From: Chloroflexota bacterium
GTDB lineage: Bacteria > Chloroflexota > Dehalococcoidia > GIF9 > UBA5629
Assembly: GCA_016875875.1 (NCBI GenBank)
Contig: VGOP01000006.1
Location: forward strand, 72,773-136,772
DNA: 64,000 nt
Direction of reading: 5' to 3'
Program-made: the position numbers and the translations under genes
Shown: one piece after another, positions 15,436-32,850 of the stretch
Position numbering within the stretch: the first letter of the stretch is position 1
How the letters are laid out: each line of letters begins with the position of its first letter
Notes under the pieces: generated by a model
The model's database searches: none
Told to the model about the DNA's origin: nothing
Seen by the model: only the letters and a program-made list of their open reading frames with translations

Positions 15436-15448
15436 TAAGGAGGAGCGA

Positions 15449-17410
15449 ATGGAGCCGAAAATAGGTGTCTATATCTGCCACTGCGGAGCCAATATCGCCG
15501 CCACAGTTGATGTCGAGAAAGTAACTGAGTCCGCCAAAAGCTTACCATCGGTATTTGTGGCCAGAGATTACAAATTCGTGTGCTCGGACCCAGGACAAGA
15601 GCTGATAAAGAATGACATCAAAGAACTGGGACTTAACCGCATTGTGGTGGCCTCATGTTCACCAAGATTGCATGAACAAACTTTCAGACGAACATTAGCC
15701 AGTGCCGGTCTGAATCCATACCTTTTCGAGATGGCAAATATCCGTGAGCACTGCTCCTGGGTACATGAGGACGGTGGAAGAGCAACTGAGAAAGCCAAGG
15801 CGCTTGTCAGCGCTGCAGTAAGGCGAGTTGCTCACCACATACCACTGGAAACTAAAGAAGTTCCGTTTAATCCTAACACGTTGGTAGTCGGCGGAGGCAT
15901 TGCTGGTATACAGGCAGCGCTGGAGATCGCCGACTCGGGCCATAAAGTCTATCTGGTAGAGCGGGAACCTTCGATCGGCGGCCACATGGCTCAACTCGAT
16001 AAAACCTTTCCCACCTTAGACTGTTCCGCCTGAATACTCACACCTAAGATGGCCTCGGTGAGGTCACACGAAAACATCGAGATGATGACTTATAGCGAAG
16101 TCATGGAAGTTTCAGGCTATGTGGGTAACTTCAAGGTCAAGATTAGAAAGAAGCCACGCTACATAGACGAAAGCAAATGCACCGGCTGTGGCACCTGCCA
16201 GGATAAATGCCCCATGAAAGCAGACAGCGAATTCGATTTTGGGATTGGCACAAGAAAGGTAATATATACACCATTCCCGCAGGCGGTACCAAATATCCCG
16301 ATAATTGACCGAGAGCGTTGCACCTATTTCCTCAAAGGCAAGTGTAGAGCCTGCGAGAAATTTTGCGAGGCCAAGGCAATTGACTTCGAGCAGACAGAGA
16401 AGATAATCGACCTGGATGTGGGCTCGATCATCGTTGCTACAGGCTTCGATTCCTTTGATCCCTCCCCAATGTCTCAATTCGGTTATGGACGATACGATGA
16501 CGTTATCACCGGCTTCCAGTTCGAGAGAATGAGCAGTGCTTCGGGACCCACCGGAGGTAAGATATTGCTCAAAGACGGCTCAGAGCCACGAAGCATAGCC
16601 ATACTGCACTGCATTGGCAGCCGCGACCTCAACTATCACGAATATTGCTCTCGTGTCTGCTGCATGTATTCGCTCAAGTTCGCTCACCTAATTAGGGAAA
16701 AAATCCACGACGCCGAAATCTATGACCTTTACATTGACCTCCGCTGCTTCGGCAAAGGCTACGAGGAATTCTACAACCGCCTTCAGGAGGAGGGGGTCAA
16801 CTTCATCAGGGGCCGTGCTGGAGAGGTTACCGATGTAGCCGAAACTCCCGAAGAAAAGGGAAGACTCGTGGTTCTCTGTGAAGACACCTTAATCGGTCGG
16901 CAACGGCGCCTTCCCGTTGACATGGTAATTCTGAGCAATGCCTTGGAGCCTCGTTCTGATGCCAAAGAGGTAGCCAAGCTCTTTTCTATCAGCCGAAGCA
17001 GAGATGGCTTCTTCCTGGAGAAGCATCCCAAGCTTGACCCCGTGGCCACAACAACAGATGGCGTTTTCGTCACCGGTTGCTGTCAGGGACCAAAAGACAT
17101 TCCCGACACCGTAGCCCAGGCCTCAGCCGCCGCCGCCCGTGTCATGGCCATGATATGCAAAGGCAGTGTTGAGATTGAGGCAGCTACTGCGGTTATCGAA
17201 GAGGAGTTCTGTTCCGGATGCAAGACTTGCATTTCGCTCTGCCCTTATAATGCGATTTCCTTCAACGAGGATAAGAAAGTATCTATTATCAACGAAGCTC
17301 TATGCAAAGGTTGCGGCACCTGTACTGCCGCCTGCCCCAGCGGAGCTATCACCAGCCGACATTTCACCGTTAAGCAGATTATGGCACAGCTGGAAGGAGT
17401 GATGATATGA
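15449..17410 (+). CDS. hdrA: heterodisulfide reductase subunit A, selenocysteine-containing (in-frame TGA at 16031..16033)
   Basis: Track ORFs 15422..16033 and 16049..17410 share one frame and are separated only by a TGA. The joined protein reads ...[27 protein letters not shown]. It is collinear with the Cys paralogue at 19250 (...[27 protein letters not shown]). Both are 653 aa. The start is the ATG at 15449 behind AAGGAGGAG. Confidence 0.9.
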
Positions 17411-17814
17411 GCTACGAGCCAAAGATAGTCGGATTCTTATGCAATTGGTGCTCTTATGCAGCCGCCGATTTGGCAGGCACCTCCCGGAAAAAATATGCGC
17501 CTAATGTACGCGTAATCCGAGTTATGTGCAGCGGTCGTGTCGAGCCCACCTTTATCCTCAAAGCTTTCCAGTTGGGTGCAGACGGTGTGCTCGTATGCGG
17601 CTGACATCCCGGCGAATGTCATTACCTGGAAGGTAATGTAAAGGAAGCCCGCAGGATACCCTTGCTCAAGAAAATGCTAGGTCAACTCGGCATCGAAGAG
17701 GAGCGGCTTAGGCTGGACTGGGTCTCAGCCTCAGAAGGCGACCGCTTTGCTTCCATTGTCGATGATATGACTGATCAAATAAGAAAGCTTGGCCCTTTTA
17801 GCCAAAATGGCTGA
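17407..17814 (+). CDS. mvhD: MvhD/VhuD-like [2Fe-2S] subunit, selenocysteine-containing (in-frame TGA at 17602..17604)
   Basis: The ORF stops at ...DGVLVCG-TGA. My read-through translation continues [69 protein letters not shown] (stop 17812-17814). This matches the paralogue at 21208 (...[17 protein letters not shown]...[29 protein letters not shown]). The TGA aligns with Cys67 of the paralogue. Confidence 0.9.
17620..17638 (+). promoter_or_regulatory. candidate bacterial SECIS hairpin for the mvhD UGA
   Basis: CAUUACC-UGGAA-GGUAAUG: a perfect 7-bp stem with a 5-nt loop. It starts 16 nt 3' of the UGA at 17602. Confidence 0.6.
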
Positions 17815-17868
17815 CGTTTCTTTCTAGCCCAACGGTTTTTAGTTTCAAATAGTATCCTCCTTTTAGCC

Positions 17869-17884
17869 TGAGGCTCTAGCCTCA
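17869..17884. repeat. GC-rich palindromic hairpin, member of a recurring TGAGGC/CGAGGC...GCCTCG family
   Basis: TGAGGC-TCTA-GCCTCA, ~55 nt downstream of the mvhD(Sec) stop. Related copies are at 56307, 57571 and 61470. Confidence 0.5.
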
Positions 17885-17975
17885 ACTAGTTTGGCATCGT
17901 TTCGCTCAGAATAACAAAGGGCCAAAGCCAAACCGTTTCCTTTTAAAAAAACTTGCGTAAAACTACCTAAAAAAC

Positions 17976-17992
17976 TTGCCTGAAACAGGCAA
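17976..17992. promoter_or_regulatory. perfect 7-3-7 inverted repeat upstream of the second hdr/mvh cluster (operator candidate)
   Basis: TTGCCTG-aaa-CAGGCAA. AAAAACTTGC occurs twice just upstream of and into it. A TTGCAA-N18-TATCAT promoter-like pair follows at about 18010-18039. Confidence 0.35.
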
Positions 17993-18078
17993 AATCCCCG
18001 TGTTTCCGCTTGCAAGGAATTCCCAATATGTTGTATCATATTGCGATTTCCAAACTCGAGAGAAAGGAAGGATTCGTT

Positions 18079-19233
18079 ATGGAAGCAGTAGTACCCTTGA
18101 AAGAAACCACCGATATCATTTTAGAGGAGGGGGGCAACCCCCTTGAATTATGTTATCAATGTGGTCTATGCACCGGCGTCTGTCCCTGGAACATGGTAAG
18201 AGACTTCACTCTGCGCAAGTTGATTCATAAGACGCAGATGGGCCTGATTGATTTCGAAGATGAAGACCTGTGGAGATGCACCAACTGCTACGCTTGCGTC
18301 AAGCGGTGTCCTCGTGGTGTGGAAGTGCCACACATCATGAGGGCTATGCGCAGAGTCATTATGGAGGTGGGCGCAGGCAAAGCCCCCGAATCGTTCCGTA
18401 TTACAGTTAAAAACATCGCCAGTGTGGGCAACCCGCTCGGCGAACCACCAGAGAAGCGAATAGATTGGGCAAAATTCCTTGGGGTTAAGACCTTCACTAA
18501 AGGAACCGAGTATCTATACTTCCCCTGCTGTTACCAGGCCTACGACCTCGCTATCCAGAGAGTGCTCCGGGCAGCAGTCTATATCATGAACAAAGCCAAT
18601 GTAGACTTCGGTATCTCAGATAGCAGGGTAGTCTGCTGCGGCGAAAGTGTACGCAACGGAGGTGCCCAAAGCTTATGGAATAACTTGGCTCAGACTAATA
18701 TTAAGACCTTTGCCGAACTTGGGGTTAAAAAGATTGTGGTCACCTCCCCACACTGCTATCTTGCTTTCAAGAATGACTACCCCGAGCTCGGAGGCAATTT
18801 CGAGGTAATTCATATTATGCAATTATTGGCCGAGCTGATTAAGGACGGAAAATTGAAGTTCACAAAACCAGTGAACAAAAAGGTTACTTTGCATGACACC
18901 TGCTGTGTCGGACGCAGAGAGGGCATGTATGATGAACCCAGGTTGGTTCTAAACAGTATCCCCGGCCTGGAACTGGTCGAGATGAGGGATTCTCGTGAGT
19001 ATTCCCTATGTTGTGGCGGTGGTTGTATGGGAAGAATCTGGATGGAAACCAAAAAGGGAGAGAGGTTTTCTGACATCAGACTGGAGCAAGCTCTCGAGAC
19101 GGGAGCCAACACCTTAGCCATCTACTGCCCTTACTGCATGCTCAATTTCGATGATACTGTACTGGTCATGGACAAGGCTGGCGAAATCGAAATCAAAGAT
19201 GTTTTAGAGCTGGCCTCAGAGGCATTGGAATAA
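18079..19233 (+). CDS. fused HdrC/HdrB-like (HdrD-type) iron-sulfur CCG-domain protein
   Basis: N-terminal CYQCGLCTGVCPW and CTNCYACVKRCPRG (HdrC-like), followed by CCG motifs (VVCCGES, SLCCGGGC, CPYCMLN). The start is the ATG at 18079 behind AAGGAAGGA. Confidence 0.85.
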   Translation: MEAVVPLKETTDIILEEGGNPLELCYQCGLCTGVCPWNMVRDFTLRKLIHKTQMGLIDFEDEDLWRCTNCYACVKRCPRGVEVPHIMRAMRRVIMEVGAGKAPESFRITVKNIASVGNPLGEPPEKRIDWAKFLGVKTFTKGTEYLYFPCCYQAYDLAIQRVLRAAVYIMNKANVDFGISDSRVVCCGESVRNGGAQSLWNNLAQTNIKTFAELGVKKIVVTSPHCYLAFKNDYPELGGNFEVIHIMQLLAELIKDGKLKFTKPVNKKVTLHDTCCVGRREGMYDEPRLVLNSIPGLELVEMRDSREYSLCCGGGCMGRIWMETKKGERFSDIRLEQALETGANTLAIYCPYCMLNFDDTVLVMDKAGEIEIKDVLELASEALE

Positions 19234-19249
19234 TCAAAAGGAGGAAAGA

Positions 19250-21211
19250 ATGGCGAAACCCAAGATAGGTGTATATGTTTGCCACTGCGGGTCTAATATC
19301 GCCGGTACCATTGATGTACCGCAGGTAGTCGAGTTTGCTAAGGGGCTGCCGGCGGTAGCAATTGCCCGCGAATACAAATTTATGTGTTCTGACCCGGGAC
19401 AGAGCATGATTAAGGATGACATTAATAACTTAAAGCTTAACCGGGTAGTGGTTGCCTCCTGTTCTCCACTACTGCACGAGCAAACCTTCCGCCGCGCAGT
19501 TCAAGAGGCCGGAATCAATCCCTATCTCTTCGAGATGGCAAATATCAGAGAACACTGCTCCTGGACCACCGAAGACCACGGAGAAGCCACCGAGAAAGCC
19601 AAAGCCCTGGTAAGCGCTGCAGTAAAACGCGTCTATTATCATCAGCCTTTAGAGACAAGAGAGGTTCCGGTCAATCCAAATACCTTAATTGTTGGTGGCG
19701 GCATCGCCGGGATTCAGGCTGCATTAGAAATCGCCGATGCCGGGCACAAAGTTTATCTGGTCGAGAAAGACCCGAGCATCGGTGGACACATGATTCAATT
19801 CGACAAAACCTTCCCCACCCTGGACTGCTCTGCCTGCATCCTCACCCCCAAGATGACCTCAGCAGGCTCTCATCATAACATCGAATTAATGACCCACAGT
19901 GAAGTCAAGGAAATCGCCGGTTTTATCGGCAACTTCAAAGCCAAGATTCGTAAAAAAGCTAGATTTGTTGATGAGTCCAAATGCAATGGCTGCGGTGTGT
20001 GCATGGAAAAATGTCCATGGAAAGCAGATAGCGAGTTTGACCTCGGATTAAGCCAGCGAAAAGCTATCTACACCCCATTCCCACAAGCAGTACCTAATAT
20101 CCCCGTGATAGACAAGGAGAGCTGTGCCTATTTCCTCAAAGGCAAATGCCGTGCCTGCGAAAAGTTCTGCGAGAGAGAAGCCATTGACTTCGAGCAGCAG
20201 GATAAAATTGTCGAGATAGATGTAGGCAACATAATCATAGCCACCGGCTATGACCCGTTCGACCCCACCCCCATCATCAAGTACGGTTATGGTAAATTTC
20301 CTAACGTTGTCACCGGCCTCGAATTCGAGAGAATCTGTAATTCCGTAGGACCTACCGGTGGCAAAATCGTTCTTAAAGACGGTTCTGAGCCAAAGAGCAT
20401 AGCTATCATCCACTGTGTCGGCAGCCGCGATGAAAATTACCATGAATACTGTTCTCGCGTCTGCTGTATGTATGCCCTCAAATACTCCCACCTTATAAAA
20501 GAAAAAACAAAAGCCGATGTCTATCAGATGTATATAGATATGCGCTGCTTTGGCAAGGGATACGAGGAATTCTATAAGCGACTATCTAAAGAAGGGGTTA
20601 CTTTCATACGAGGCAAGCCAGCCGAGGTTAGTGATAGGGCAATGAGTGAAGAGGAGAAAGGAAAACTGATTGTCGTCGGCGAGGACAGTTTACTTGGAAC
20701 CATTGTCAGAGTCCCGGTCGACATGGTTATCCTGTGCATAGCACTAGAAGCCCGTGCTGATGCCAAGAACGTTGCCCAGTTGTTCAGTATAAGCCAAGGG
20801 GCCGATGGCTTCTTTATAGAGAGACATCCCAAACTTGACCCGGTAGCAACTATGACTGAGGGTGTCTTTATCGCCGGCTGCTGCCAGAGTCCTAAAGACA
20901 TACCTGACACCGTAGCCCAGGCCTCAGCCGCAGCTACTCGCGTCTTGGCCTTGATAAGCAAGGGGAAAGTTGAGCTAGAGGCAGCCGTCGCAGTAATTGA
21001 TGAAGAGAAATGCTCTGGCTGCCGAATCTGCAATCTACTCTGTCCCTACAACGCTATTGACTTTATTGAAAAAGACGAGGTATCTCGAATTAACGAAGCT
21101 CTGTGTAAGGGTTGCGGTACTTGCGTCGCCGCCTGTCCTAGCGCAGCTATAACACATAAGCATTTTACCACTGAAGAAATTATGGCAGAAATCGAGGGGG
21201 TATTAGTATGA
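19250..21211 (+). CDS. hdrA: heterodisulfide reductase subunit A (Cys form)
   Basis: 653 aa. FAD-binding [17 protein letters not shown], several 4Fe-4S motifs ([36 protein letters not shown]), and Cys where the upstream copy has TGA. Confidence 0.95.
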
Positions 21212-21636
21212 ACAACTTCGAACCAAAAATCGTCGGCTTCTGTTGTAACTGGTGCTCCTACCGGGGAGCCGATTTAGCTGGCACTGCCAGAATGAAATGC
21301 TCTCCTAATGTCCGCATCATCAGAGTGATGTGCAGCGGCCGGGTGGAACCAACATTTGTTGCCAAAGCTTTCGAACTGGGAGCGGATGGCGTTCTGGTTT
21401 TAGGTTGCCATCCTGGTGATTGCCACTATGTCGAGGGCAACTATAAGACAATGCGGCGCATGCCATTGCTCAAGAAAATGCTAGGGCAGCTCGGCATTGA
21501 AGACGAGCGGGTGCGGCTCGACTGGGTATCAGCTTCCGAAGGGGACCGCTTCGTCTCAATAGTTGACGATATGACCACAAAGGTTAGAGCCTTAGGGCCC
21601 TTCAAAAAGAACTCCAAGGAGGCAAAACATGGCTAA
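21208..21636 (+). CDS. mvhD: MvhD-like [2Fe-2S] hydrogenase/heterodisulfide reductase linker subunit (Cys form)
   Basis: CCNWCSY...VMCSGRV...GCHPGDCHY pattern. ATGA overlap with hdrA. Confidence 0.9.
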
Positions 21637-22588
21637 GCTCAAAATTGCGCTCTACTGGGCAGCTAGTTGCGGTGGCTGTGAAATCGCTCAACTCCAGATT
21701 GGCGATAAAATCCTCAAGCTGGCCGAGGTTGCCGATATCGTTTTCTGGCCAGTTGCTATCGACGCCAAGTATAAAGACGTCGAAGCTATGCCAGAAAAGA
21801 GCATAGATGTCTGCCTGTTTAACGGAGGCATCAGGAATTCCGAACAGGAACACCTAGCAAAAATGCTGCGCGAAAAATCCAAAGTGATGATTGCCTATGG
21901 CGCTTGTGCTTCTGAAGGTGGCATTCCCGGACTAGCGAATCTGTTCAACCGGGAACTGATTTTCCAGAGGGTCTACCTTGAAACACCGTCGACAGATAAT
22001 AAAGACAAAGTATTCCCCCAGCCGAAATACAAGGTGCCTGAAGGTGAACTTAACATACCCGAGTTCTACGACACAGTCAGGACCCTCGCTCAGACAGTGG
22101 ATGTAGACTATACCATCCCCGGTTGCCCACCAGAAGCCAGGACAACTTGGCTGGCTTTGGAAGCCTTGATTGAAGGTAAATTGCCTCCAAAAGGGACGGT
22201 GATCACTCACAATGCCAAAGCAGTATGCGATGATTGCCCTCGGAAGAGGGATGTGAAAAAGGTCAAGAAATTCTACAGAACTTTCGAAATCATACCGGAA
22301 CCGGAAATCTGCTTGCTTGAGCAGGGCCTCCTGTGTGCCGGCATCGCCACCCGTGGTGGCTGTGAGGCTCCCTGCCCACAGGCCAATATGCCGTGCACCG
22401 GCTGCTATGGACCAGTGGACGGAGTGATCGACCAAGGGGCACATTTTTTGAGCGGAGTGTCTTCAGTGATTGACTCCAATGACCCAACCGAAATCGACAA
22501 AATCATTGCCGGTATTCATGACCCGGTGGGCATCTTCTATCGCTACAGCTTAGCTGATTCGCTACTAAGGAGGGCAAGAATAAAATGA
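21629..22588 (+). CDS. mvhG: [NiFe] hydrogenase small subunit, group 3 (MvhG-like), no Tat signal
   Basis: N-terminus [16 protein letters not shown], and distal cluster Cys motifs ([30 protein letters not shown]). Confidence 0.9.
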
Positions 22589-24045
22589 AGAAAATAACCA
22601 TAGACCCTATAACCAGGCTTGAAGGCCATGGCAAAATAGAGATATTTCTCAACGACGCTGGAGAGGTGGAAAATACCTACTTCCAGGTCCCGGAACTCAG
22701 AGGCTTTGAGAAGTTCTCTGAAGGGCGGCTGGCTGAGGACATGCCTCAGATAACCCAGAGAATCTGTGGCGTCTGTCCTGAAGCTCACCACATGGCATCA
22801 GCAAAATGTCTGGATGACCTGTTCCATGTTGACCCACCAAGCCCAGCCAAGAAGCTTCGCGAACTCTTTTATAGCTCCTTCTATGTCACTGACCACACCA
22901 CCCATTTCTACATCCTGGCTGGTCCCGACTTCGTCATGGGACCAGAGGCTCCTGTGGCCGAGCGCAACATCCTGGGAGTTATCGCCAAAGTCGGCCTGGA
23001 ACTAGGTGGAGCCGTGATTAATACACGAATGAAAAATCACCACATCATCCACATGCTCGGCGGTAGAGCCGTGCATCCTGTCTTCGGCCTGCCCGGTGGT
23101 GTCAGCAAGGGGCTTAATGAGGAGGAGAGAAAGGAAGTCGAGCAAATAGCCAAGGACTCCGTTGAATTTGCCAAATTATCCCTCAAAGTATTTGATGATA
23201 TTGTCCTCAAGAACAAAGAGTACCTGGATATGGTCCTCAGTGACGCCTATACTCACCGCACCTACTACATGGGTCTGGTCGACGAAAAGAACAGAGTAAA
23301 CTTCTATGATGGCAAAGTTAGAGTGGTTGACCCTGACGGCAAGGAATTTGTTAAATATGCACCCCGAGAATATCTCGACCATATCGCTGAACATGTAGAA
23401 CCGTGGACTTATGTCAAGATGCCCTACCTCAAGAAGATCGGCTGGAAAGGGTTTGTCGACGGCAAGGACAGCGGCGTTTTCCGGTCAACTCCTCTTTCCC
23501 GACTCAATGCCGCCAATGGTATGGCAACTCCTCTGGCCCAGGCAGAGTACGAGAGATTCTACTCCACACTGGGCGGCAAGCCGGTCCATCAGACGTTGGC
23601 GACTCACTGGGCTCGACTTGTCGAGCTTCTATATGCTGCCGAAAGATTGCTTGAGCTCAGCAAAGACCCTGAGATTACCAGCCCCAACATCCGCACTATC
23701 CCCACAGCCACCCCAGATGAAGGCGTTGGCATAGTGGAAGCTCCCAGAGGCACCCTAACACATCATTATATTACTGATGAGAAAGGGATTATCAAGAAAG
23801 CGAACTTGATTGTGGCTACAGTCAATAATGCAGCGCCTATTAACATGTCCATCAAAAAAGCAGCCATGGCTCTCATAAAGCCCGGCAAGAAGATAACTGA
23901 AGGGCTGCTTAACCGCATTGAGATGGCCTGGCGCCCCTATGACCCCTGCTGGGGATGTGCCACCCACACTTTTCCGGGTCAGACGCCAATGGAGGTAACT
24001 ATCTACAACAGCCAGGGAGAGGTAGTAGAAAGGTTAAGCCGTTAA
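22585..24045 (+). CDS. mvhA: [NiFe] hydrogenase large subunit, group 3 (MvhA-like), Cys type
   Basis: RLEGHGKIEI, N-terminal RICGVCPEAH and C-terminal DPCWGCATH Ni-binding motifs. Confidence 0.95.
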   Translation: MKKITIDPITRLEGHGKIEIFLNDAGEVENTYFQVPELRGFEKFSEGRLAEDMPQITQRICGVCPEAHHMASAKCLDDLFHVDPPSPAKKLRELFYSSFYVTDHTTHFYILAGPDFVMGPEAPVAERNILGVIAKVGLELGGAVINTRMKNHHIIHMLGGRAVHPVFGLPGGVSKGLNEEERKEVEQIAKDSVEFAKLSLKVFDDIVLKNKEYLDMVLSDAYTHRTYYMGLVDEKNRVNFYDGKVRVVDPDGKEFVKYAPREYLDHIAEHVEPWTYVKMPYLKKIGWKGFVDGKDSGVFRSTPLSRLNAANGMATPLAQAEYERFYSTLGGKPVHQTLATHWARLVELLYAAERLLELSKDPEITSPNIRTIPTATPDEGVGIVEAPRGTLTHHYITDEKGIIKKANLIVATVNNAAPINMSIKKAAMALIKPGKKITEGLLNRIEMAWRPYDPCWGCATHTFPGQTPMEVTIYNSQGEVVERLSR

Positions 24046-24087
24046 CCTCTGTGTATAGCAATTTAAAGAATAAGTGCATTTACATAA

Positions 24088-24558
24088 GTGGATGGGAAAA
24101 CGAAGACACTAATATTGGGGATGGGCAATTCACTCCTCAGCGACGATGGAGTGGGCCTCTACGTTGCTGCTGAACTTAGAAAAAAACTGAATCAACCAGA
24201 CATAACCGTTATGGAGACCGGCGTGGCCGGTCTCAGTCTTTTAGACCTGCTGGTTGGCTATGACAGAGCCATCATCATTGATGCCATTCAAACAATAGGC
24301 GGAAAAGCGGGGCAGATTTACCGCCTCGACCCAAAAGCGTTTGATACCGCCCTACACACGGCATCAGCTCACGGTATTGACTTTACTACCGCCCTTGAAT
24401 TTGGTAAAAAATTCGGCCTTGCCCTACCACAGCAAATCGTCATCTTCGCCATCGAGGCTTTGGACATAAGCACATTCAGCGAAGAGTGCACACCCGAGAT
24501 TAAACAGGCAATTCCCGCCTGTGTCGAAATGGTCCTCCAAGAACTAAAAATGGGGTGA
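24088..24558 (+). CDS. hydrogenase maturation endopeptidase
   Basis: LILGMGNSLLSDDGVG ... IIIDAI ... HG pattern of the HycI/HybD/FrhD family. GTG start. Confidence 0.85.
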   Translation: MDGKTKTLILGMGNSLLSDDGVGLYVAAELRKKLNQPDITVMETGVAGLSLLDLLVGYDRAIIIDAIQTIGGKAGQIYRLDPKAFDTALHTASAHGIDFTTALEFGKKFGLALPQQIVIFAIEALDISTFSEECTPEIKQAIPACVEMVLQELKMG

Positions 24559-24603: not shown

Positions 24604-25854
24604 TCACCACTTTTCTTGAGATAATCTGGAGGTAAGCCAGGTACGCAAAGGTTCATCTAACATACCAACCCTGGATTCCAGCCAGCGGACGTCCCCGCTC
24701 TCCAGTGCAGCTTTTGCTTCCGGTGTTAGATTATAAGCCTTGAGAGCCTGATTAGGATTGTCCGCCAGTTTAGCCAAGAACTTAGTGTCATCTCTAGCTC
24801 TAGCTAACACCGATATGAGGGCATTAGTCTCCGCATCCAGATAGGCTGCTTGCTGAGGCTGCAATTGTGGCTTAGAAAACATACCTGCAAGCCAGGGCCT
24901 AGCAGCTACTGCTTCAGCAGCACGTTCCTTGCGAAGGTATATTAGCCAATATATACTACCTACAAACGTGCCGCCGACGATATTGCCCAGAGTAACTGGA
25001 AACAGATTACCGATAAGGCCAGCGACATTGAGATTAGCCACCTGGCTTGCAGTCACGCCAGCTACTTCAAGGACTTTGGCCTGTCCCGCCATAGCTATGC
25101 CCATTGGAATGAAGTACATGTTAGCTATGCTATGTTCAAAACCACAAGCCACAAATGCAGTTATAGGAAAAAGGATGGCGAATACCTTATCAATGGTGGA
25201 GCGAGCACCAAAACAAAGCCAGACAGCTAGACAGACAAGCGTATTGCACAGAATTCCACGAGCAAAAGCCGTCCAAAAAGCCAAGTTGACTTTGGCATTA
25301 GCTATTGATAAGGCATTGACACCCACTTTAAAACCATCCAGTGCCCAAAACTGACTATAAAAGACTACAAGCACTAAGAGCAGTGACCCAACAAGATTGG
25401 CGAAATAAACTATGCCCCAGTTTTTAAACAATTGAGACAGCCTTATCTTGCCACTGGCTCGACCAGCTACCATAAGCGCATTACCAGTGAACAGCTCGGC
25501 TCCAGCTAACACCACGAGAATAAGTCCTAGGCAGAACACAACTCCGCCGAGCAGCTTGGTCAGGCCAAAACCAACCTGGATATCAGTAGTAACCAGAGTG
25601 CAGAACATGGCTCCCAAACCAATAAAGAACCCCGCCAATATTCCTAGCAGCGAGATAGACCAGATATTGCCATTAGCTTTGGTTACTCCCACACCTTCCA
25701 TTTTTACCGCCATCTCCGCCGGCGGTCTACAGTCAGTAGTGGCACAGATTTTCAGCTCTTCCAAGGCAGTCTGTAAGCGAGACACCTCCATAGTTGGAAG
25801 CTTCCCCACCTCCAGTCTTTGTATTTCCTTACCTGATGACTTTAAGTCTGCCAT
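24604..25854 (-). CDS. formate/nitrite transporter (FNT) family channel with a C-terminal ~100-aa soluble extension homologous to the two small SQEKW proteins
   Basis: FNT signatures (LAGAELFTGN, ACGFEHSIANMYFIP). I chose the ATG at 25854 (MADLKSS...) behind GGGGGAGG, not the track start at 25965, which overlaps the upstream gene. The tail ...ISVLARARDDTKFLAKLADNPNQALKAYNLTPEAKAALESGDVRWLESRVGMLDEPLRTWLTSRLSQEKW aligns with 25871..26200 and 30126..30452. Confidence 0.85.
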   Translation of the reverse strand: MADLKSSGKEIQRLEVGKLPTMEVSRLQTALEELKICATTDCRPPAEMAVKMEGVGVTKANGNIWSISLLGILAGFFIGLGAMFCTLVTTDIQVGFGLTKLLGGVVFCLGLILVVLAGAELFTGNALMVAGRASGKIRLSQLFKNWGIVYFANLVGSLLLVLVVFYSQFWALDGFKVGVNALSIANAKVNLAFWTAFARGILCNTLVCLAVWLCFGARSTIDKVFAILFPITAFVACGFEHSIANMYFIPMGIAMAGQAKVLEVAGVTASQVANLNVAGLIGNLFPVTLGNIVGGTFVGSIYWLIYLRKERAAEAVAARPWLAGMFSKPQLQPQQAAYLDAETNALISVLARARDDTKFLAKLADNPNQALKAYNLTPEAKAALESGDVRWLESRVGMLDEPLRTWLTSRLSQEKW

Positions 25855-25870
25855 GATTCCATTCCTCCCC

Positions 25871-26200
25871 CTACCATTTCTCCTGAGACATTCGGTACCA
25901 CAACCAGGTTGACAGACGCTTGTCCAGTTTCCCCACCCAACTCTCAATCTTCTGGATATCACCACTAGCTAGAGCTGCTTTCTCTTCCTGTGTCAATGTG
26001 TAATACTCCTTAAGTGCTTCGTGAGGATTATCTGCCAGACGGGACATGAATTCAGGCTCGTCGGCTGCTCTGGCCAGCACAGACAATACTGCCCACCTTC
26101 CGGTCAAGCCCTCTTTTGGGACAACTGTAGGTGCACTAATAAGTCTGTCAAGTGCTTCGGGGGTAGTTTCTTCGGTCTTTCTATGAACTTCCTTAGCCAT
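25871..26200 (-). CDS. small helical protein ending in SQEKW (paralogue 1; NHLP/LigA-like appearance)
   Basis: 109 aa. A strong SD (AAGGAGG) lies 7 nt before the ATG. The stop is 16 nt before the FNT start. Over the last 87 residues I counted 9 differences from the protein at 30126..30452. Confidence 0.8.
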   Translation of the reverse strand: MAKEVHRKTEETTPEALDRLISAPTVVPKEGLTGRWAVLSVLARAADEPEFMSRLADNPHEALKEYYTLTQEEKAALASGDIQKIESWVGKLDKRLSTWLWYRMSQEKW

Positions 26201-26238
26201 TTTGACACCTCCTTCTTTATTTTGGTTTCCACCCTAAA

Positions 26239-26303
26239 TGTAGCAACTATCAAAGTATCTCTCATCGGTCTTCAGCTCTAATTGCGATAGGGCTTTAGGT
26301 ATG
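26239..26303 (-). promoter_or_regulatory. conserved ~65-bp upstream element, copy A (promoter/operator or 5' leader of paralogue 1)
   Basis: It aligns with 30496..30561 at a similar distance from the start codon. Shared blocks (plus-strand reading) are TGTAGCAA, TCATCGGTCTT, AGC.CTAATT.CGATAG and CTTT. Confidence 0.55.
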
Positions 26304-26455
26304 TACAAAAGTATCATGTTGGCCGAACAAGCAGTGCTGCTATTTGGAATCCTACGGATGCTCAAAACAAGTGTGCTTTGGCCATTAGTACTAGTTCTTT
26401 TAGGCTCCGCAATTGACACTGGGTTGACTTTATTTTAGAATGCAAGCCAAATAAA

Positions 26456-26576
26456 GAGGGGGGTGGACGGTGACAAACGCGGCGTGTTCGGCTATTACGT
26501 CAAGGGGGCAAGGCACAGGCTCGGGGTCAACTGCTTTGAAGGAATTGTCTGTCACCGCCCACTCGGTACCCTCCTC
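26456..26576. other. unassigned ~120-nt element with a long interrupted closing helix (possible structured RNA; strand undetermined)
   Basis: GAGGGGGG...TGGACGGTGACA (26456-26475) pairs with TGTCACCGCCCA...CCCTCCTC (26549-26576) around a G/C-rich ~70-nt interior. It lies in the 533-bp gap between the satP stop and the paralogue-1 start. The only ORF listed in that gap (26234..26419) is unconvincing and does not overlap the element. Confidence 0.4.
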
Positions 26577-26733
26577 TATTAAGGCATCACACCTACAAGT
26601 TGAATTAAGTTAATGCCACCGAGTTTAACAATTAATTCCAGATTACCTTGCTCATATTTATTTGTTAATAGCAACTCCCTGGTTTCCAAGGTATTACAAC
26701 TAGTCCAAACAGCTAAAATATGTCTCTAACAAT

Positions 26734-27309
26734 TTATTTGGAAATCAGGCCGATAGGGAACACCCACCTTCCGAACTTGTCATTCAACACCACGGCTGCT
26801 GATCCATAGGCTGCTGCAGCACCACAGCACAGTCCTTCTATTCCTGCTACCACTGCTGGCAGAATACCAAAAAACACGGCTGCAAGCAGGAAGAACAGTA
26901 TCGTCAAAGTGGCGAACACGAAGATGTGCATCACTGACATTCTAAAGGTGCCTATGGTCATATAACCGGTGAATATACCCCAGCATATGAACAACCAGGC
27001 AAGTCCGGAGCTCTCCATCTCTACTACACCAGTCCACTGCAACAGGAAGTAAAAACTCAGTCCTAGCCAGAACAAACCATATGAAGTGAATGCAGTCAGA
27101 CCAAAGGTGTCACCACGACGAGCGTCTATTATGCCGGCAATAACCTGAGCCACACCCCCCCAGAAAAATCCGTATACCAGTGGCAGGGTACCTTCAATCA
27201 AACCGAGATTGTGTATCTGTAACAAAATAGTATTCAGGCCAAATCCAGCTAACCCTAAGGCACCTGGATTAGCCCACTTAACATCATTTTGAGTCATTAC
27301 CTTTGCCAT
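26734..27309 (-). CDS. satP: acetate/succinate channel, GPR1/FUN34/YaaH (SatP) family
   Basis: NPGALGLAGFGLNTILLQIHN and six hydrophobic helices, as is typical of YaaH/SatP. It lies directly downstream of acs. Confidence 0.85.
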   Translation of the reverse strand: MAKVMTQNDVKWANPGALGLAGFGLNTILLQIHNLGLIEGTLPLVYGFFWGGVAQVIAGIIDARRGDTFGLTAFTSYGLFWLGLSFYFLLQWTGVVEMESSGLAWLFICWGIFTGYMTIGTFRMSVMHIFVFATLTILFFLLAAVFFGILPAVVAGIEGLCCGAAAAYGSAAVVLNDKFGRWVFPIGLISK

Positions 27310-27383
27310 AAAAGTACCTCCTTTCTTAGAATTATCTTATATTGGTCGGAACCAGATACAGATTGGTCCGACCAGAAAAGACT

Positions 27384-29351
27384 CTAGATTCTCTCCTTAA
27401 CCAGTATATCAACCACCGAGGGGTCAGCCAGAGTAGTGGTATCACCCAATTGCTCTACGTCACCAGCAGCAATCTTGGTCAATATTCTCCTCATAATCTT
27501 GCCGCTCCTGGTCTTGGGCAAAGCATCAGCAAATTGAATCTTGTCTGGTGTAGCTATGGGGCCAATCTCTTTGCGAACATGGGCTACCAGTTCTTTCTTA
27601 AGCTCTTCGGACTTTACCACGCTAGCTTTTAGAGTAACAAAAGCATATATGCCTTGCCCTTTTATCTCATGGGGCATGCCAACAACTGCAGATTCTGCCA
27701 CCTTATCATGAGACACCAGAGCACTTTCGACCTCGGCCGTGCCTATGCGATGACCTGACACATTAATAACATCATCTATACGACCCATTAACCAGTAGAA
27801 CCCGTCTTCGTCTACCCTAGCTCCGTCTCCTGTTGTATACACGCCAGGGAACCGAACAAAGTAAGTGTTCTTGAACCTCTCAGGGTCACCATAGACCCGC
27901 CGCATCAGACCCGGCCAAGGTTTTTTAATCACCAAGTAACCGCCCTCATTCACATCAGCAACGGAACCATCCTCCCTAAGCACGGCTGGCTCAACCCCAG
28001 GAAATGGTAACGTCGCTGACCCTGGCTTAAGTGGAGTAGAACCGGGTAAAGGAGTGATTAATACTCCGCCTGTTTCTGTTTGCCACCAGGTATCTACAAT
28101 CGGACACTTACCTTTACCTATTACATTGTAGTACCAAATCCAAGCCTCGGGATTTATAGGTTCGCCCACTGTTCCTAAGAGACGCAAGGAGGTCAAATCA
28201 TGCTTTTCAGGCCACTCATCTCCCTCCCTCATTATGGCCCGTAGAGCAGTGGGGGCAGTGTAGAAAATACTGACTTGGTACTTTTCGACAATGTCCCAGA
28301 ACCTATCAGGATGGGGATAGTTTGGTACCCCTTCAAACATAAGGACCGTTGCTCCGTAAGACAAGGGGCCATAAACGATATATGAGTGCCCAGTCACCCA
28401 ACCAATGTCGGCTGTGCACCAGAAAGTGTCTTCTTCCTTCATGTCAAAAATCCACTTAAAGGTCTGATAGCAGTACAATAGGTAACCTGCCTGAGTATGG
28501 AGAACGCCTTTCGGTTTCCCGGTGCTACCACTGGTGTACAAGATAAACAGAGGGTCTTCAGCATCCATAACCTCAGGCTCACAGTGTGCTTTAACGCCAT
28601 CAGCAGCCATCTCGTTATCCCACCAATAGTCACGCCCTTCTTTCATGGCTACTTCAATATTAGCCCTCTTGACCACTATTACATCTTTTACGTCAGGGCA
28701 GGCCGCAAGGGCTTCATCAGCATTGTCTTTACTCCGGATAATCTTACCGCCACGATAGTAACCATCTACACAAATGAGTACCGTAGACCCGCAGTCCAGC
28801 ATCCTATCCTTCAAGGCGTCAGCGCTAAAACCACCAAACACAACACTATGAATAGCACCGATCCTGGTACAGGCCAACATAGCAATCGGTAATTCGACAA
28901 TCATAGGTAGATAAATAGATACCCTATCTCCCTTTTTAACGCCATGTTTTTTGAGCACATTAGCAAATTTGCACACCTCTTGATACAGCTGTTGATAGGT
29001 GAGTATCTTGCTGTCACCAATGTCACCTTCCCAAATCAGTGCTGCCTTATTTCTTCTCCATGTCCTAACATGCCTGTCCAAGCAATTTTGACAAACATTG
29101 AGTTTGCCGCCCACAAACCATTCGTGCTTGCCCTCTTTGAAATCATCAACAAGCACCTTATCCCATTTCTTGTACCAATCCAGCTGCTCTGCCATCTCTC
29201 CCCAGAATCCCTCGGGGTCGTTAATGGACCATTGATAGACGTCTTTATACTCGACCAGATTCCTTATGTAAGCCTTTTCACTGACTTCCCTTGGAGGATT
29301 AAAAACTCTTTTCTCCCCCATCATTGAGGTGATTGTTTTAATATCTGCCAT
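27384..29351 (-). CDS. acs: acetyl-CoA synthetase (AMP-forming)
   Basis: 655 aa. AMP-binding motif [20 protein letters not shown], and C-terminal SGKIMRR with the conserved acylatable Lys context. Confidence 0.95.
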
Positions 29352-29394
29352 TGCTAAACTCCTTTCTAGACTTGGGCATTTTCAATTACCTGAT

Positions 29395-29850
29395 CTACAC
29401 CTGAGAAGTGACACCCAATAACTGAGCATATGCCTGGCGCAGTCTAGTTGCTACCACACGTGCAATCCCCCTGGAGACTCTGCAGCCTATCTCAGGCTTG
29501 GTGATGCACAAAGCGGATAACTCTTGCCCATCAAAGGTCAACACCTTTGTACTCTCTAAAGCTTTTACCGTAGCCGTGCAAATATATGGGTCGAGCATAG
29601 CTGACCAACCGAATGCCTCGTAATCAGTTACCGCTTGAACCTGGCGTTGGGCAAGTGGCCCAACTTCCAGAATAATCCCTACCGTGCCGTTTTCAATCAC
29701 GTAGAGTTTTTGCTCCTTGCAACCCTGCTTGCAGATAATCGACCCAGCACCAAATTCTTCATGGTCGCACATTTTTTCCACTTCGCGAAGCTGCTTATCA
29801 TCCAAAGTCCTGAACATTTCGCATTTTCTCAACACATCAAACTTCTTCAT
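29395..29850 (-). CDS. cyclic-nucleotide-binding domain protein (effector domain only, no HTH)
   Basis: 151 aa with a CAP_ED-like pattern (FRTLDDKQLREVEKMC...FGAGSIICKQG...LYVIENGTV...EAFGWSAML). No DNA-binding domain follows. Confidence 0.7.
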   Translation of the reverse strand: MKKFDVLRKCEMFRTLDDKQLREVEKMCDHEEFGAGSIICKQGCKEQKLYVIENGTVGIILEVGPLAQRQVQAVTDYEAFGWSAMLDPYICTATVKALESTKVLTFDGQELSALCITKPEIGCRVSRGIARVVATRLRQAYAQLLGVTSQV

Positions 29851-29934
29851 TTGTTCAACCTCCTAATTTCTATTTGCCTTTGCCGCAAGACACCAATTGC
29901 TCCTCAGCTGCTACCACAGCTATGTACTTTACCC

Positions 29935-30111
29935 TCAGCCACGGCAGCCGGAATCAGTCATAGACCTAGCTCCTGTGCGGTCAGAGCGCAACCTGAATAC
30001 CCTCTGAGCGACACTGTAAAGACCACGCAAGCTCGAAAACAGAAAAAATGCTGTAAGACACAGGGCAATAGAAATCACAAAACCTACAACTGCAATAAAG
30101 TGCAAATTCAT
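29935..30111 (-). CDS. micro membrane protein (single predicted TM helix), translationally adjacent to paralogue 2
   Basis: MNLHFIAVVGFVISIALCLTAFFLFSSL... has one hydrophobic helix followed by a basic tail. AAGGAG directly follows the paralogue-2 stop and lies ~10 nt before this ATG. The track ORF starts at 30132. Confidence 0.45.
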   Translation of the reverse strand: MNLHFIAVVGFVISIALCLTAFFLFSSLRGLYSVAQRVFRLRSDRTGARSMTDSGCRG

Positions 30112-30125
30112 TGTTTCCATCTCCT

Positions 30126-30452
30126 TTACCACTTCTCCTGTGACAGTCTATACAACAGCCAGGTTGACAAACGCCTGTCTAGCTTGCCCACCCAACTCTC
30201 AATTTTCTGTATATCACCGCTGGCTAAAGCCGCTTTTTCTTCCTGAGTCAATGTGTAGTATTCCTTAAGGGCTACGTGAGGGTCATCTGCCAAGCGGGAC
30301 ATGAACTCAGGTTCATCAGCTGCCCGGACAAGCACAGATAGTATCGCCCATCTCCCAGCCAAGCCATCCTTCGGAACAACGGTAGGCGCTTTGATCAGCT
30401 CCTCCATTGCTTCGGTAGTTTCTTCGGTCTTCCCACGAACCATCTTATCCAT
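30126..30452 (-). CDS. small helical protein ending in SQEKW (paralogue 2)
   Basis: ...KTEETTEAMEELIKAPTVVPKDGLAGRWAILSVLVRAADEPEFMSRLADDPHVALKEYYTLTQEEKAALASGDIQKIESWVGKLDRRLSTWLLYRLSQEKW. I chose the ATG at 30452, 8 nt after GGAG. The GTG at 30461 and the ATG at 30443 are alternatives. Confidence 0.8.
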   Translation of the reverse strand: MDKMVRGKTEETTEAMEELIKAPTVVPKDGLAGRWAILSVLVRAADEPEFMSRLADDPHVALKEYYTLTQEEKAALASGDIQKIESWVGKLDRRLSTWLLYRLSQEKW

Positions 30453-30495
30453 TCCTGTCACTCCATTGGCTTTTGACTCGCTTTTCTGCTTTTAC

Positions 30496-30561
30496 TGTAG
30501 CAATTAGCAATTGGGCTATCATCGGTCTTTAGCCCTAATTTCGATAGTACTTTGGCCTATG
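30496..30561 (-). promoter_or_regulatory. conserved ~65-bp upstream element, copy B (in the divergent region between paralogue 2 and the response regulator)
   Basis: See 26239..26303. About 47 of the first 60 aligned positions are identical by hand alignment. Confidence 0.55.
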
Positions 30562-30660: not shown

Positions 30661-31350
30661 ATGAAGACGAAGACCAGAATTTTAATCGCCGATGACCATC
30701 CACTGCTGCGCGAAGCACTGTGCCAAGTATTTTCCAATCAAAAAGACATGGAGATAGTTGGCCAAGCAAATAATGGTGAGGAGGCTATCAACCTAACTTC
30801 CCAATTGAAGCCAGATATTCTAGTTATGGATATTATGATGCCAAAGTTCGATGGTCTTGAAGCTAGCCGACAGATTAAGAAAATTGCTCCCAATACTGCC
30901 ATATTAATTCTCACTGCCTACGATGACGACAATTATGTTCTTGGATTACTAGAGGCTGGAGCAACTGGTTACTTGATGAAGAGTGCTCGAGGACAAGACC
31001 TGGTAGAAGCCGTGCGAGCTATAAGAGCCGGCGAATCAGTACTTCACCCTAAAATCATTGAGAAGCTGCTCAAGCAAGCCATGGCTAAACCAGCAGAAAC
31101 TGTAGACCGCAAAATAAAGGACCTTCTGAGCGACCGGGAGATGGAAATGCTGAAGCTGTTGGCTACCGGAATGAGCAACAAAGAGATAGCCGACAAACTA
31201 TGTCTCAGCCTACGTACTGTCAAGGCTCACATGTCCAATATTTTCACCAAGATGAATGTCGCTTCGCGAAGTGAAGCTCTCGTTGAGGCCCTTAGAACAG
31301 GACTTCTTACCTTAAAAGATATCAAACAAGAAGCTACTCCAGAAGATTAG
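30661..31350 (+). CDS. NarL/LuxR-family response regulator (paralogue of 12941..13606)
   Basis: ILIADDHPLLREAL...DIMMPKFDG...TAYDDD, plus the LuxR HTH LSDREMEMLKLLATGMSNKEIADKLCLSLRTVKAHMSNIFTKM. Confidence 0.95.
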   Translation: MKTKTRILIADDHPLLREALCQVFSNQKDMEIVGQANNGEEAINLTSQLKPDILVMDIMMPKFDGLEASRQIKKIAPNTAILILTAYDDDNYVLGLLEAGATGYLMKSARGQDLVEAVRAIRAGESVLHPKIIEKLLKQAMAKPAETVDRKIKDLLSDREMEMLKLLATGMSNKEIADKLCLSLRTVKAHMSNIFTKMNVASRSEALVEALRTGLLTLKDIKQEATPED

Positions 31351-31413: not shown

Positions 31414-32850
31414 ATGTCAGATAGATGGCGAATTTTCCACATCTGTTTGCTAACCCTCTTTTTCTTAGTTCTAACTCTATCTCATTACCACGAGCTTCTG
31501 GCCGGGATACCTATAGTAGGCGAGGTATCTATTACTTCGTCCCTTGGTTTATCAAGGCATGTCATAGAGCGATTCATTTACATCGTACTCGTAATCTATG
31601 CTGGCTGGTCACTGGGAATAATGTTCGGCATTGCTACATTGTTGGCCTCTGCTATCGCTATGCTACCTTGGGCACTATTTATATCCACTAATCCCATAGA
31701 CGCCATAACCGAGAGCATCGCTGCGCTTATTATCAGTGGCTTAAGCATTTCCCTAATTCAAATGCACCGCGGATGGTATCGGCAAAAACAAAGGCTGCGT
31801 GGAATCAAAGTGGCCTTAAGAACATCCCAACAAAACTACGAGGAGCTTTTTACTAATGCCAGTGATGCCATCTGGGTTCATGACCTTAACGGCAAGATAA
31901 TTATGGCCAATAAAGCCTGCGAAACAGTCAGTGGCTATTCCCCAGATGACGCAATAGGCAAAAATGTTTCCGAATTTATGTCCCCCGATGCGCTCAGTAT
32001 AGCCAGAGGAATCAAAATTAAGCTCATGAAGGGCCAAGCCATAGACCAGCGCTACGACCAAAGATTAATCAAAAAAGATGACTCAGAAGCTATTGTAGAA
32101 TTGTTTACCCGTCTAATCAGAGATGATGACGGCAAGCCCATCGCCTTTCAGAATATCGCTCGTGATGTGACTGAGGAAAGAAGACTGCGGGACAATCTCC
32201 GATTTCAAATTCACAAAACTCTCATGGCACAGGAAGAAGAGCGAAAACGCATTGCTCGGGAACTCCATGATGATATTGCCCAATCTATATTGTTATTGTC
32301 ACGCCAACTGGATATCCTTATATCCGGAGGTGCCCAGAATAGGCTGCCAAAAGCTTCAGTAGGCGAGCTAGAGTATATACAAAACATAGCCAACGAGACC
32401 TACAAAGGTCTGCAGCGCTACGCACGTGACCTGAGACCAAGCATTTTGGACCAGATGGGACTAGTGGCAGCATTGAATTGGCTGGCTGAGGAACTTAGTA
32501 AAGAACTGGGGACCAAAACTACGGTGAAAGCGGATAAATTGCCCCTACTCGCCTCAGAAACAGAGCTAGCCATGTTTCGCATTGCGCAAGAGGCATTGAA
32601 CAACGTTCGGAAGCATGCTCAAGCTTCCGAGGTCAACATTACAGTGAAAACTGATTCGAACAATATAAAGATGGCTATCACAGACAACGGCAAGGGCTTC
32701 TCGACACCCAGATTGACCGGGGATCTGGCAAGAGAGGGAAAACTCGGCGTCTTGGGCATGGAAGAGCGAGCACGTCTTATCGGAGGTGAGTTACACATAA
32801 AATCCGGGCCAGGCAAAGGTACAACTGTAATCGCCAAAGCACCTATTTAA
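31414..32850 (+). CDS. membrane-bound sensor histidine kinase (TM-PAS-HisKA_3-HATPase)
   Basis: Hydrophobic N-terminal ~125 aa, a PAS region (NYEELFTNASDAIWVHDLNGKI), the H-box RIARELHDDIAQSI, and an ATPase region (DNGKGF, GVLGMEER, GKGT). Confidence 0.9.
   Translation: MSDRWRIFHICLLTLFFLVLTLSHYHELLAGIPIVGEVSITSSLGLSRHVIERFIYIVLVIYAGWSLGIMFGIATLLASAIAMLPWALFISTNPIDAITESIAALIISGLSISLIQMHRGWYRQKQRLRGIKVALRTSQQNYEELFTNASDAIWVHDLNGKIIMANKACETVSGYSPDDAIGKNVSEFMSPDALSIARGIKIKLMKGQAIDQRYDQRLIKKDDSEAIVELFTRLIRDDDGKPIAFQNIARDVTEERRLRDNLRFQIHKTLMAQEEERKRIARELHDDIAQSILLLSRQLDILISGGAQNRLPKASVGELEYIQNIANETYKGLQRYARDLRPSILDQMGLVAALNWLAEELSKELGTKTTVKADKLPLLASETELAMFRIAQEALNNVRKHAQASEVNITVKTDSNNIKMAITDNGKGFSTPRLTGDLAREGKLGVLGMEERARLIGGELHIKSGPGKGTTVIAKAPI

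Follow-up and report, generated by a model that had tools for sequence, protein, structure and literature searches.

The 64-kb stretch of Chloroflexota DNA analysed here (the window) encodes two small and closely similar proteins, p1 and p2, which share a helical domain, hereafter DOM, with the C-terminus of a FocA-like channel of the FNT family encoded next to p1. A six-frame search of the window with a hidden Markov model (HMM) of the domain found exactly three copies:

25871..26200, minus strand: p1, free DOM protein of 109 amino acids (aa); open reading frame (ORF) with ATG start and AAGGAGG ahead of it
30126..30452, minus strand: p2, free DOM protein of 108 aa; ORF with ATG start and GGAG 9 nt upstream
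24604..25854, minus strand: FNT (FocA-like) channel with C-terminally fused DOM, 416 aa; Pfam Form_Nir_trans, 243.5 bits

Both small ORFs were found as the initial annotation of this DNA had described them, including the nine differences over the last 87 residues and the identity of the stretch EYYTLTQEEKAALASGDIQKIESWVGKLD; BLASTP aligned the last 90 residues of p1 and p2 without gaps and with 80 identities (89%, E 2e-60). A GTG at 30461 would yield a p2 of 111 aa, but this longer form is unlikely because the homologues have 108 aa. In p1, a disordered N-terminal region of ~33 aa is followed by the six-helix DOM, which ends in SQEKW. The third copy, likewise proposed before as a fusion, makes up the last ~75 aa of the FNT protein (about 24604-24828) and is ~60% identical to p1 (tblastn). 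The start of the FNT gene is the ATG at 25854, 16 nt past the p1 stop codon, giving 416 aa as in L001, a Chloroflexota genome of 1.76 Mb (L numbers denote loci in other genomes), and not the GTG at 25965, which overlaps p1. The Thr and His motifs of the pore, LFTG and FEHSIANM, are retained in the channel, which scores above the threshold of PF01226; the cutoffs of the FocA equivalogs were not reached (TIGR04060, 249.6 vs 290.1 bits; TIGR00790, 221.8 vs 232.3 bits). Formate or acetate may be the substrate. A possible fourth DOM at 60747-60953 on the plus strand (tblastn, E 0.014) lies antisense within a CCA-adding/poly(A) polymerase gene, where the DOM HMM is silent, and was dropped.

At the DNA level, the p1 and p2 genes are only 76% identical. 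Nei-Gojobori estimates for 90 gapless codons gave a pS of 0.70, which means saturation, a dN of 0.055 and a dN/dS of 0.027, indicating an old duplication and strong purifying selection. In related genomes, the copies preceding FNT genes are closer to p1 and the copies preceding genes for a micro-transmembrane (micro-TM) protein are closer to p2. Such separate orthologous groups of p1-type and p2-type proteins indicate that the duplication predates the divergence of these species. p1 and p2 are real genes, and both copies are held under strong constraint. The initial annotation had argued for a functional module rather than spurious ORFs and had named the dN/dS ratio of the two copies as a check; besides this ratio, its view is upheld by 1222 homologues, by the orthologous duplication in other genomes, by synteny and by recurrent fusions.

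On the minus strand, the genes follow each other in the order p2, micro-TM protein, cNMP-binding protein, acs, satP, a gap of 533 nt, p1, a gap of 16 nt and FNT::DOM (double colons denote fusions). Each free copy heads a transcription unit, as had been proposed: p1 is the first cistron of the pair with FNT::DOM, and p2 is the first cistron of an operon with the acetate genes and adjoins a divergent two-component system. The other genes of this neighbourhood are:

29935..30132, minus strand: conserved micro-TM protein (uTM), about 61-65 aa; ORF whose start overlaps the p2 stop codon
29395..29850, minus strand: stand-alone cNMP-binding domain protein, 151 aa; Pfam cNMP_binding, 42.4 bits; conserved in the cassette
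27384..29351, minus strand: acetate--CoA ligase (Acs); TIGR02188, 1012.8 bits, cutoff 725
26734..27309, minus strand: acetate uptake transporter (SatP/AceTr); NF038013, 163 bits, cutoff 50
30661..31350, plus strand: LuxR/GerE-type response regulator, divergent from p2; Pfam Response_reg and GerE
31414..32850, plus strand: membrane-bound PAS-HisKA_3-HATPase histidine kinase, partner of the response regulator; Pfam

The single-TM protein uTM, of 65 aa in the window, has a counterpart at 6055-6252 of L001 and is also kept in L012, L018, L104 and L117; p2 occupies the same position in these five loci. In related genomes, uTM carries the motifs ..FFLFSSLRGLY.. and, at the C-terminus, ..S.CRG. The position of the histidine kinase beside the response regulator is kept in most cassettes.

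Upstream of both start codons, the p1 and p2 loci remain similar over about 95 nt, despite the saturation of synonymous sites within the genes. This region contains a conserved block of ~66 nt:

26237..26298, minus strand: conserved upstream block of p1, about 35-100 nt before the start codon; nhmmer E 6.6e-19
30494..30559, minus strand: conserved upstream block of p2, before the start codon; nhmmer E 1.7e-19

The core of the block reads AATTAGRGCYNAAGACCGATGAGAG...TAATTGCTACA, and AATTAGAGCTGAAGACCGATGAGAG...TTGCTACA in the p1 feature. With nhmmer, the block was found upstream of free DOM genes twice each in L001, L012, L104 and L117 and also in L018, L026, L053, L063 and L111, i.e. in nine related genomes altogether. 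It had no match in Rfam, and RNAalifold predicted zero pairs on 15 sequences. A hand-proposed stem (AATTAG/CTAATT) showed no more covariation than shuffled sequences, of which 209 of 500 scored as high, and the idea of an RNA element in this position was dropped. We treat the block as a DNA-level element; it may be a promoter or operator common to p1 and p2, presumably for the adjacent response regulator, and its presence at both genes would agree with their co-regulation.

Family and fold of the domain

The initial annotation could not assign p1 and p2 to any characterised function. A named family does exist, namely NCBIfam NF038399 ('Os1348 family NHLP clan protein', cutoff 40 bits), which p1 and p2 enter narrowly with 44.4 and 40.6 bits, but its function is likewise uncharacterised. 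The FNT tail (residues 385-439 of a 453-aa ORF) stays below this cutoff with 27.5 bits, and the gathering threshold of Pfam PF14407 (Frankia_peptide, 48 bits) was not reached by p1 (23.8), p2 (26.5) or the FNT tail (15.2). The prototype of NF038399 sits in a gene cluster resembling those for peptides that are made on ribosomes and then modified post-translationally (RiPPs). As NF038399 is uncharacterised and a RiPP-like context is absent at the loci described here, the homology searches did not place p1 and p2 in a well-characterised family with a known role.

A word-indexed search retrieved the 1222 homologues of p1, nearly all of them unnamed and derived from metagenomes of Chloroflexota/Dehalococcoidia; a single one bears the NF038399 name from NCBI. 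When 1.84 billion cluster representatives were searched exhaustively with a profile, only 302 clusters emerged at E<=1e-3, which makes this a small family. DOM nearly always terminates in ...RLxQExW-COOH, and the exact Trp C-terminus, with the motif ...TWLxxRLxQExW-COOH, was present in 102 of the best 150 representatives. Conserved residues are mainly hydrophobic, in addition to an SGD turn that is common to all LigA-like domains and to E86, D93, R103, Q106 and E107. A metal or redox site was dropped from consideration, as neither Cys nor His is conserved. The free DOMs are acidic (isoelectric points of 5.2-5.8), making a DNA-binding role unlikely, and the FNT tail is mildly basic (8.3). For helices 5-6, the consensus is WVGKLDkRLxTWLWCRLxQEKW in free DOMs, WvGKLDERLkTWLiaRLxQEKW in DOMs fused to formate dehydrogenase (FDH) and RWlESrvGxLdEPLrTWLtsRLxQEKW in DOMs fused to FNT; these three types are old orthologous classes. 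The free DOM proteins carry an N-terminal extension that is specific to the lineage and for which disorder is predicted.

In searches of the PDB, the DOM profile matched Os1348 (6lk7, E 2e-4) over profile positions 17-73 only, corresponding to the first four helices. It also matched RiPP precursors with SonA/LigA domains and the OphMA clasp domain, and there was a weaker match to the alpha subunit of nitrile hydratase. The profile was needed for the detection of Os1348, since phmmer with p1 alone gave only weak matches to nitrile hydratase alpha and LigA. An AF2 model of p1 has six helices and a disordered N-terminal third, with a mean pLDDT of 74.5 and block means of 75-89 over residues 31-100. 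The top Foldseek matches of this model were SonA, DesB/LigA, OphA and Os1348, with probabilities of 0.7-0.97 and E values near 1, the latter as is to be expected of a domain this small. For 6lk7_A, the probability was 0.72, with TM values of 0.39/0.53 and an rmsd of 5.6 A over 59 columns. ECOD recently grouped these folds as 'LigA-like domain' (PMC12353581), and DOM has the three-helix core that defines this X-group together with LigA, the OphMA clasp, SonA and nitrile hydratase alpha. The fold of DOM is LigA-like, a helical docking domain familiar from RiPP leaders.

Os1348, a protein of Pseudomonas sp. Os17 and the prototype of NF038399, forms a crystallographic homodimer; the genes downstream of it encode a GNAT acetyltransferase, a HEXXH/gluzincin-like protein and a SagB-type dehydrogenase, and antibiotic activity is affected (PMC7726476). 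Like Os1348, p1 and p2 are small all-helical proteins of about 85-110 aa, for p1 with six helices in the AF2 model, and they pass its family HMM. In contrast to Os1348, they have no GNAT, HEXXH or SagB-type neighbours, either in the window or in the listed loci, and their VGKLDxRLxTWLxxRLxQExW tail is not covered by the alignment with Os1348 (profile positions 17-73); no fusion of Os1348 to FNT, FDH or receiver (REC) domains has been described. The leaders of NHLP/Nif11-type RiPPs and the LigA-like 'borosin-binding' domain of SonA (PMC2887384; PDB 7ltc, 9ch7) have the same three-helix core and share the turn L-T-x-E-E-x-A-A-L-x-S-G-D with DOM, and in these systems the domain docks onto a partner enzyme. 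They differ from DOM by a variable core past a cleavage site and by adjacent maturases and exporters, whereas DOM has an invariant C-terminus and no maturases beside it, and the domain also occurs within large proteins.

Free and fused copies across genomes

One genome per species was scanned with the degenerate DNA pattern GD...xE...G...W...RxxQExW-stop, which has three matches in the window compared to zero expected by chance, and at least 120 loci were obtained. Among the matches listed, 85 were from Dehalococcoidia, 16 from other Chloroflexota, 6 from Anaerolineae, 7 from Desulfobacterota, 2 each from Planctomycetota and Clostridia, 1 from Actinomycetes and 1 from an unclassified 'bacterium'. 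ORFs in the loci were labelled by BLASTP against reference proteins, and the identities of NuoE and NuoF were confirmed with Pfam.

The labelled loci contained at least 89 free DOMs (about 100 aa), 36 FDH-alpha::DOM, 26 FNT::DOM and 5 REC::DOM proteins, these numbers being lower bounds, and DOM was at the C-terminus of the FDH alpha and FNT fusions. In longer representatives, DOM also followed a molybdopterin-dinucleotide-binding domain or one or two receiver domains (REC or REC-REC) and was found at the N-terminus of NuoE-like [2Fe-2S] proteins; tandem DOMs occurred after a MerR-type helix-turn-helix (HTH) domain and after a Fer4 protein, two copies in each case. The fusion proteins of ~987 aa are NuoG-type FDH alpha subunits, as the two that were tested, L011 and L033, scored 878 and 873 bits on TIGR01591 (cutoff 666). 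DOM-tagged FDH alpha of Dehalococcoidia comes in two forms. One is the single ORF of ~987 aa (L011, L033 and others), presumably the Cys form; in the other, ~376 aa, a TGA codon and ~606 aa follow each other (L022, L023, L047, L054, L060, L070 and L089). The ~606-aa forms are the part 3' of this in-frame TGA, which comes after ...HCARL, indicating that they belong to probable selenocysteine versions of the enzyme.

A free DOM gene is almost always the first of its operon. Co-occurrence with FNT, SatP and Acs genes, which the initial annotation had named as a second check, was evident: downstream of the free copies we found NuoE in at least 34 cases, FNT in at least 33 (at least 22 of them FNT::DOM) and the uTM/cNMP/Acs/SatP set in at least 10. 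In the NuoE cases, the next genes encode NuoF and then FDH alpha, which is usually DOM-tagged, and the order DOM-NuoE-NuoF-FDHa::DOM is fully visible in at least 8 operons. Free DOM and FNT::DOM genes are separated by 12-59 nt in 21 of the 22 pairs among the matches listed (L001 plus at least 120 loci), compared to 16 nt in the window. Upstream of the free copy, a divergent gene for a LuxR-type response regulator, followed by a kinase gene, was present in 52 of the 75 free DOM genes with visible upstream region among the matches listed.

The Acs/SatP cassette is joined to a DOM-FNT::DOM pair in the window, L001, L012, L016, L104 and L115, and L057 and L068 have the order DOM-FNT::DOM-cNMP-Acs-SatP. 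The metagenome-assembled genome C2.bin.45 carries two cassettes (L029 and L108), each with its own two-component system. Some Dehalococcoidia carry REC::Acs proteins of 796-800 aa in place of the separate cNMP-binding protein and Acs (L055 1478-3868, minus strand; also L092 and L106). The acetate genes to which the initial annotation had drawn attention make up only one of three cargo operons, and across genomes the links to formate and to an adjacent two-component system are stronger. Formate (FNT and formate dehydrogenase), not acetate, is the common denominator across the genomes.

Links of DOM to FNT, FDH, Acs and phosphorelay proteins are also seen beyond the Chloroflexota, albeit in other architectures. 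In the Desulfobacterota loci L004 and L090, and in part in L114 and L118, REC-REC::DOM is encoded beside an sCache-HAMP kinase, an FDH operon of the Sec type and an Acs-like gene. A Planctomycetota genome from a metagenome (L031, 874-4420, minus strand) has consecutive genes for REC::FNT with the receiver at the N-terminus, for REC::DOM, for a kinase of the GAF-PAS type and for an NtrC-like regulator. In these two phyla, DOM is the output domain of receiver proteins. A subfamily with QExW tail that is linked to FNT, formate dehydrogenase, Acs/SatP and two-component systems and lacks RiPP machinery does not appear in the literature that we searched, and we found no paper there linking DOM to formate metabolism.

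Some other features of the window may be mentioned. Directly downstream of the FNT gene and convergent with it, the plus strand (13988-24558) encodes Hdr-like subunits (Fer4/CCG and two HdrA-like), MvhD (FlpD), both subunits (small and large) of a [NiFe] hydrogenase and a maturation protease of the HycI type. Within this cluster, an HdrA-like flavoprotein frame (15422-17410, plus strand) is interrupted by an in-frame TGA at 16031-16033, which is probably a selenocysteine codon, and the ORFs of 203 and 453 aa are probably one protein. A second kinase of the HisKA_3 type (GAF-PAS-HisKA_3-HATPase, 11278-12873, minus strand), with an adjacent ORF of 221 aa (12941-13606, minus strand), has no link to a DOM gene. 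A PAS-PAS-GGDEF diguanylate cyclase is encoded at 52677-54059 on the plus strand, and a c-di-GMP-II riboswitch aptamer (63284-63368, plus strand; 65.1 bits, gathering score 53.5) has its target gene past the end of the window.

Possible functions of the domain

The docking role of every solved relative and the Rosetta-stone pattern of the fusions point to a docking or regulatory module. Tentatively, and at slightly less than an even chance, we favour the interpretation that DOM is a cytoplasmic docking/regulatory module for the uptake and oxidation of formate and acetate and not a RiPP leader. DOM is fused to structurally unrelated but functionally linked cytoplasmic proteins of formate/acetate metabolism and to signalling domains, and there are operons that contain a free copy together with a fused one. 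The free copy, translated as the first cistron of an operon that is probably under control of the neighbouring LuxR-type two-component system, would bind a partner with the same domain. In the window, this partner may be the FNT channel with the DOM tail at its cytoplasmic C-terminus, and in other genomes it may be the DOM-tailed formate dehydrogenase alpha. Instead or as well, the free copy might bind a component of the two-component system. As a result, the activity of the channel or enzyme could be tuned or be coupled to signalling. This is the docking mode, partner and effect that we infer for DOM.

Several observations weigh against this interpretation. A single-sequence AF2 model (without multiple sequence alignment) of a natural HTH-DOM-DOM protein, P0122, had confident domains but a pTM of 0.34, which leaves the DOM-DOM packing geometry undefined and is therefore uninformative on packing. 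Free and fused copies resembled each other no more within one locus than between loci (0.57 vs 0.60), giving no sign of pairwise co-evolution. Some cassettes contain a free DOM with no fused DOM in view, e.g. that of REC::Acs-SatP in L055, and REC-REC::DOM adjoins an FDH alpha without DOM in L004 and L090, indicating that the partner need not be another DOM. Moreover, the near-invariant terminal Trp is unexplained by a simple dimer model.

The nearest functional analogy to such a role of DOM is the gating of FocA by PflB. In E. coli, PflB as a cytoplasmic partner binds the cytoplasmic extension of the FNT channel, gates formate translocation and confers specificity (PMC11841067). In contrast to FocA, the extension is here a folded domain, the C-terminal DOM, and the small DOM protein and/or DOM-tagged FDH are candidates for the partner. 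Extending the favoured docking role, DOM might be a previously unrecognised homotypic docking tag with which Dehalococcoidia and some Desulfobacterota and Planctomycetota build a formate 'metabolon' together with its control circuit, a broader interpretation that we regard as rather doubtful. FNT, soluble NAD(P)/ferredoxin-linked FDHs, receivers and HTH regulators would then all bear the QExW-tailed tag, and the free DOMs, as the first product made from each operon, would pair with the tags or compete for them. Thereby, the channel could be gated, or a complex could be assembled or disassembled, in response to the adjacent two-component system. If true, the leader fold of the NHLP/LigA-like type would have a use outside RiPPs, and the system would be a functional analogue of FocA-PflB gating built from different parts.

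Other explanations account for fewer of the observations than the favoured one. The free DOM might be an accessory protein with a connector or feedback function that binds the adjacent kinase or response regulator, with the tails on FNT and FDH allowing the kinase to sense the status of the transporter or enzyme, comparable to systems in which a transporter serves as co-sensor. This overlaps with a docking module but names the two-component system as partner instead of another DOM. The divergent regulator-kinase pair next to 52 of 75 free DOM genes, the separate two-component systems of the two C2.bin.45 cassettes and the REC::DOM and REC-REC::DOM fusions with a kinase next door are all in line with such a function, and REC::FNT and REC::Acs demonstrate phosphorelay control of these proteins elsewhere. 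However, p1 has no two-component system of its own and directly precedes FNT::DOM, and tails on the soluble FDH alpha are hard to square with co-sensing by a kinase, so that we consider the accessory role unlikely. HycA of the formate regulon and connectors of two-component systems such as PmrD and SafA are also small; their genes stand first in the operon on which they feed back, or beside it, and they act by binding a regulator. We know of no sequence or fold relationship between them and DOM, and DOM differs in being also fused to structural proteins of the operon. A role as sensor of small ligands such as formate, acetate, CoA or another metabolite, with allosteric effects like those of ACT, CBS or GAF domains, would suit the range of architectures, since ligand-binding regulatory domains are similarly found on enzymes, channels, REC domains and HTH domains (here with two DOMs) or as stand-alone proteins. 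The mostly hydrophobic conserved residues without a Cys/His cluster, the small size of the helical domain (about 75 aa) and the use of every solved relative in protein docking make this distinctly improbable.

The relationship to NHLP-type leaders raises the question whether DOM itself is a RiPP precursor or scaffold, of which the C-terminal ...QEKW would be the core, modified by an unidentified enzyme. Membership in the NHLP clan via NF038399, the RiPP-like gene cluster of the Os1348 prototype and the nearly invariant C-terminal Trp would fit, but we judge this very unlikely. NHLP-type precursors have a Gly-Gly site and a variable core and are accompanied by a maturase and a C39 exporter (PMC2887384). 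DOM has no GG or other cleavage motif, its supposed core is conserved rather than variable, with the C-terminal 30 residues being the most conserved part of the family, and it also ends channels and enzymes of 400-1000 aa. No gene for a GNAT, HEXXH, SagB, YcaO, LanM or rSAM/SPASM protein or C39 exporter was found nearby, either in the window or among the neighbours in the loci, and 80 of 89 downstream neighbours among the matches listed were NuoE, FNT or Acs-cassette genes. Another 147 ORFs, located up to 3.4 kb from DOM genes, were counted by Pfam family; the top 25 families included no maturase or C39 family and were led by histidine kinases (12), MobA-like molybdenum-cofactor enzymes (8), TsaD (6) and MTHFR (4). 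We see even less reason to assume a tether at the membrane interface, in which the small proteins and soluble FDH would be anchored near the channels through their C-terminal helix, rich in Trp (TWLWYRMSQEKW). Three Trp among the last 11 residues and the occurrence of DOM on a soluble FDH whose substrate enters through FNT would be consistent with it. In the AF2 model, however, the C-terminal helix is packed into the domain (block-mean pLDDT of 87 for residues 91-100 and 74 for residues 101-109) and its hydrophobic moment is modest (0.5-1.0). Furthermore, FNT-type and FDH-type tails carry only two Trp, and an integral membrane channel needs no tether.

Subsurface sediments are rich in Dehalococcoidia, most of which are uncultured and for whose syntrophic life formate and acetate serve as central currencies. 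If DOM is indeed a docking or regulatory module, these bacteria would possess a dedicated and widely conserved module on a formate channel, on formate dehydrogenase and on signalling proteins, offering a new handle on the control or channelling of C1/C2 carboxylates. The fold known as 'RiPP leader' (NHLP/LigA-like) would then have a housekeeping use outside natural product formation. Due to their annotation as 'NHLP clan', such proteins could be flagged as bacteriocin precursors by genome miners. For research on FNT channels, DOM would provide a natural C-terminal regulatory domain that can be compared with the gating of FocA by PflB.

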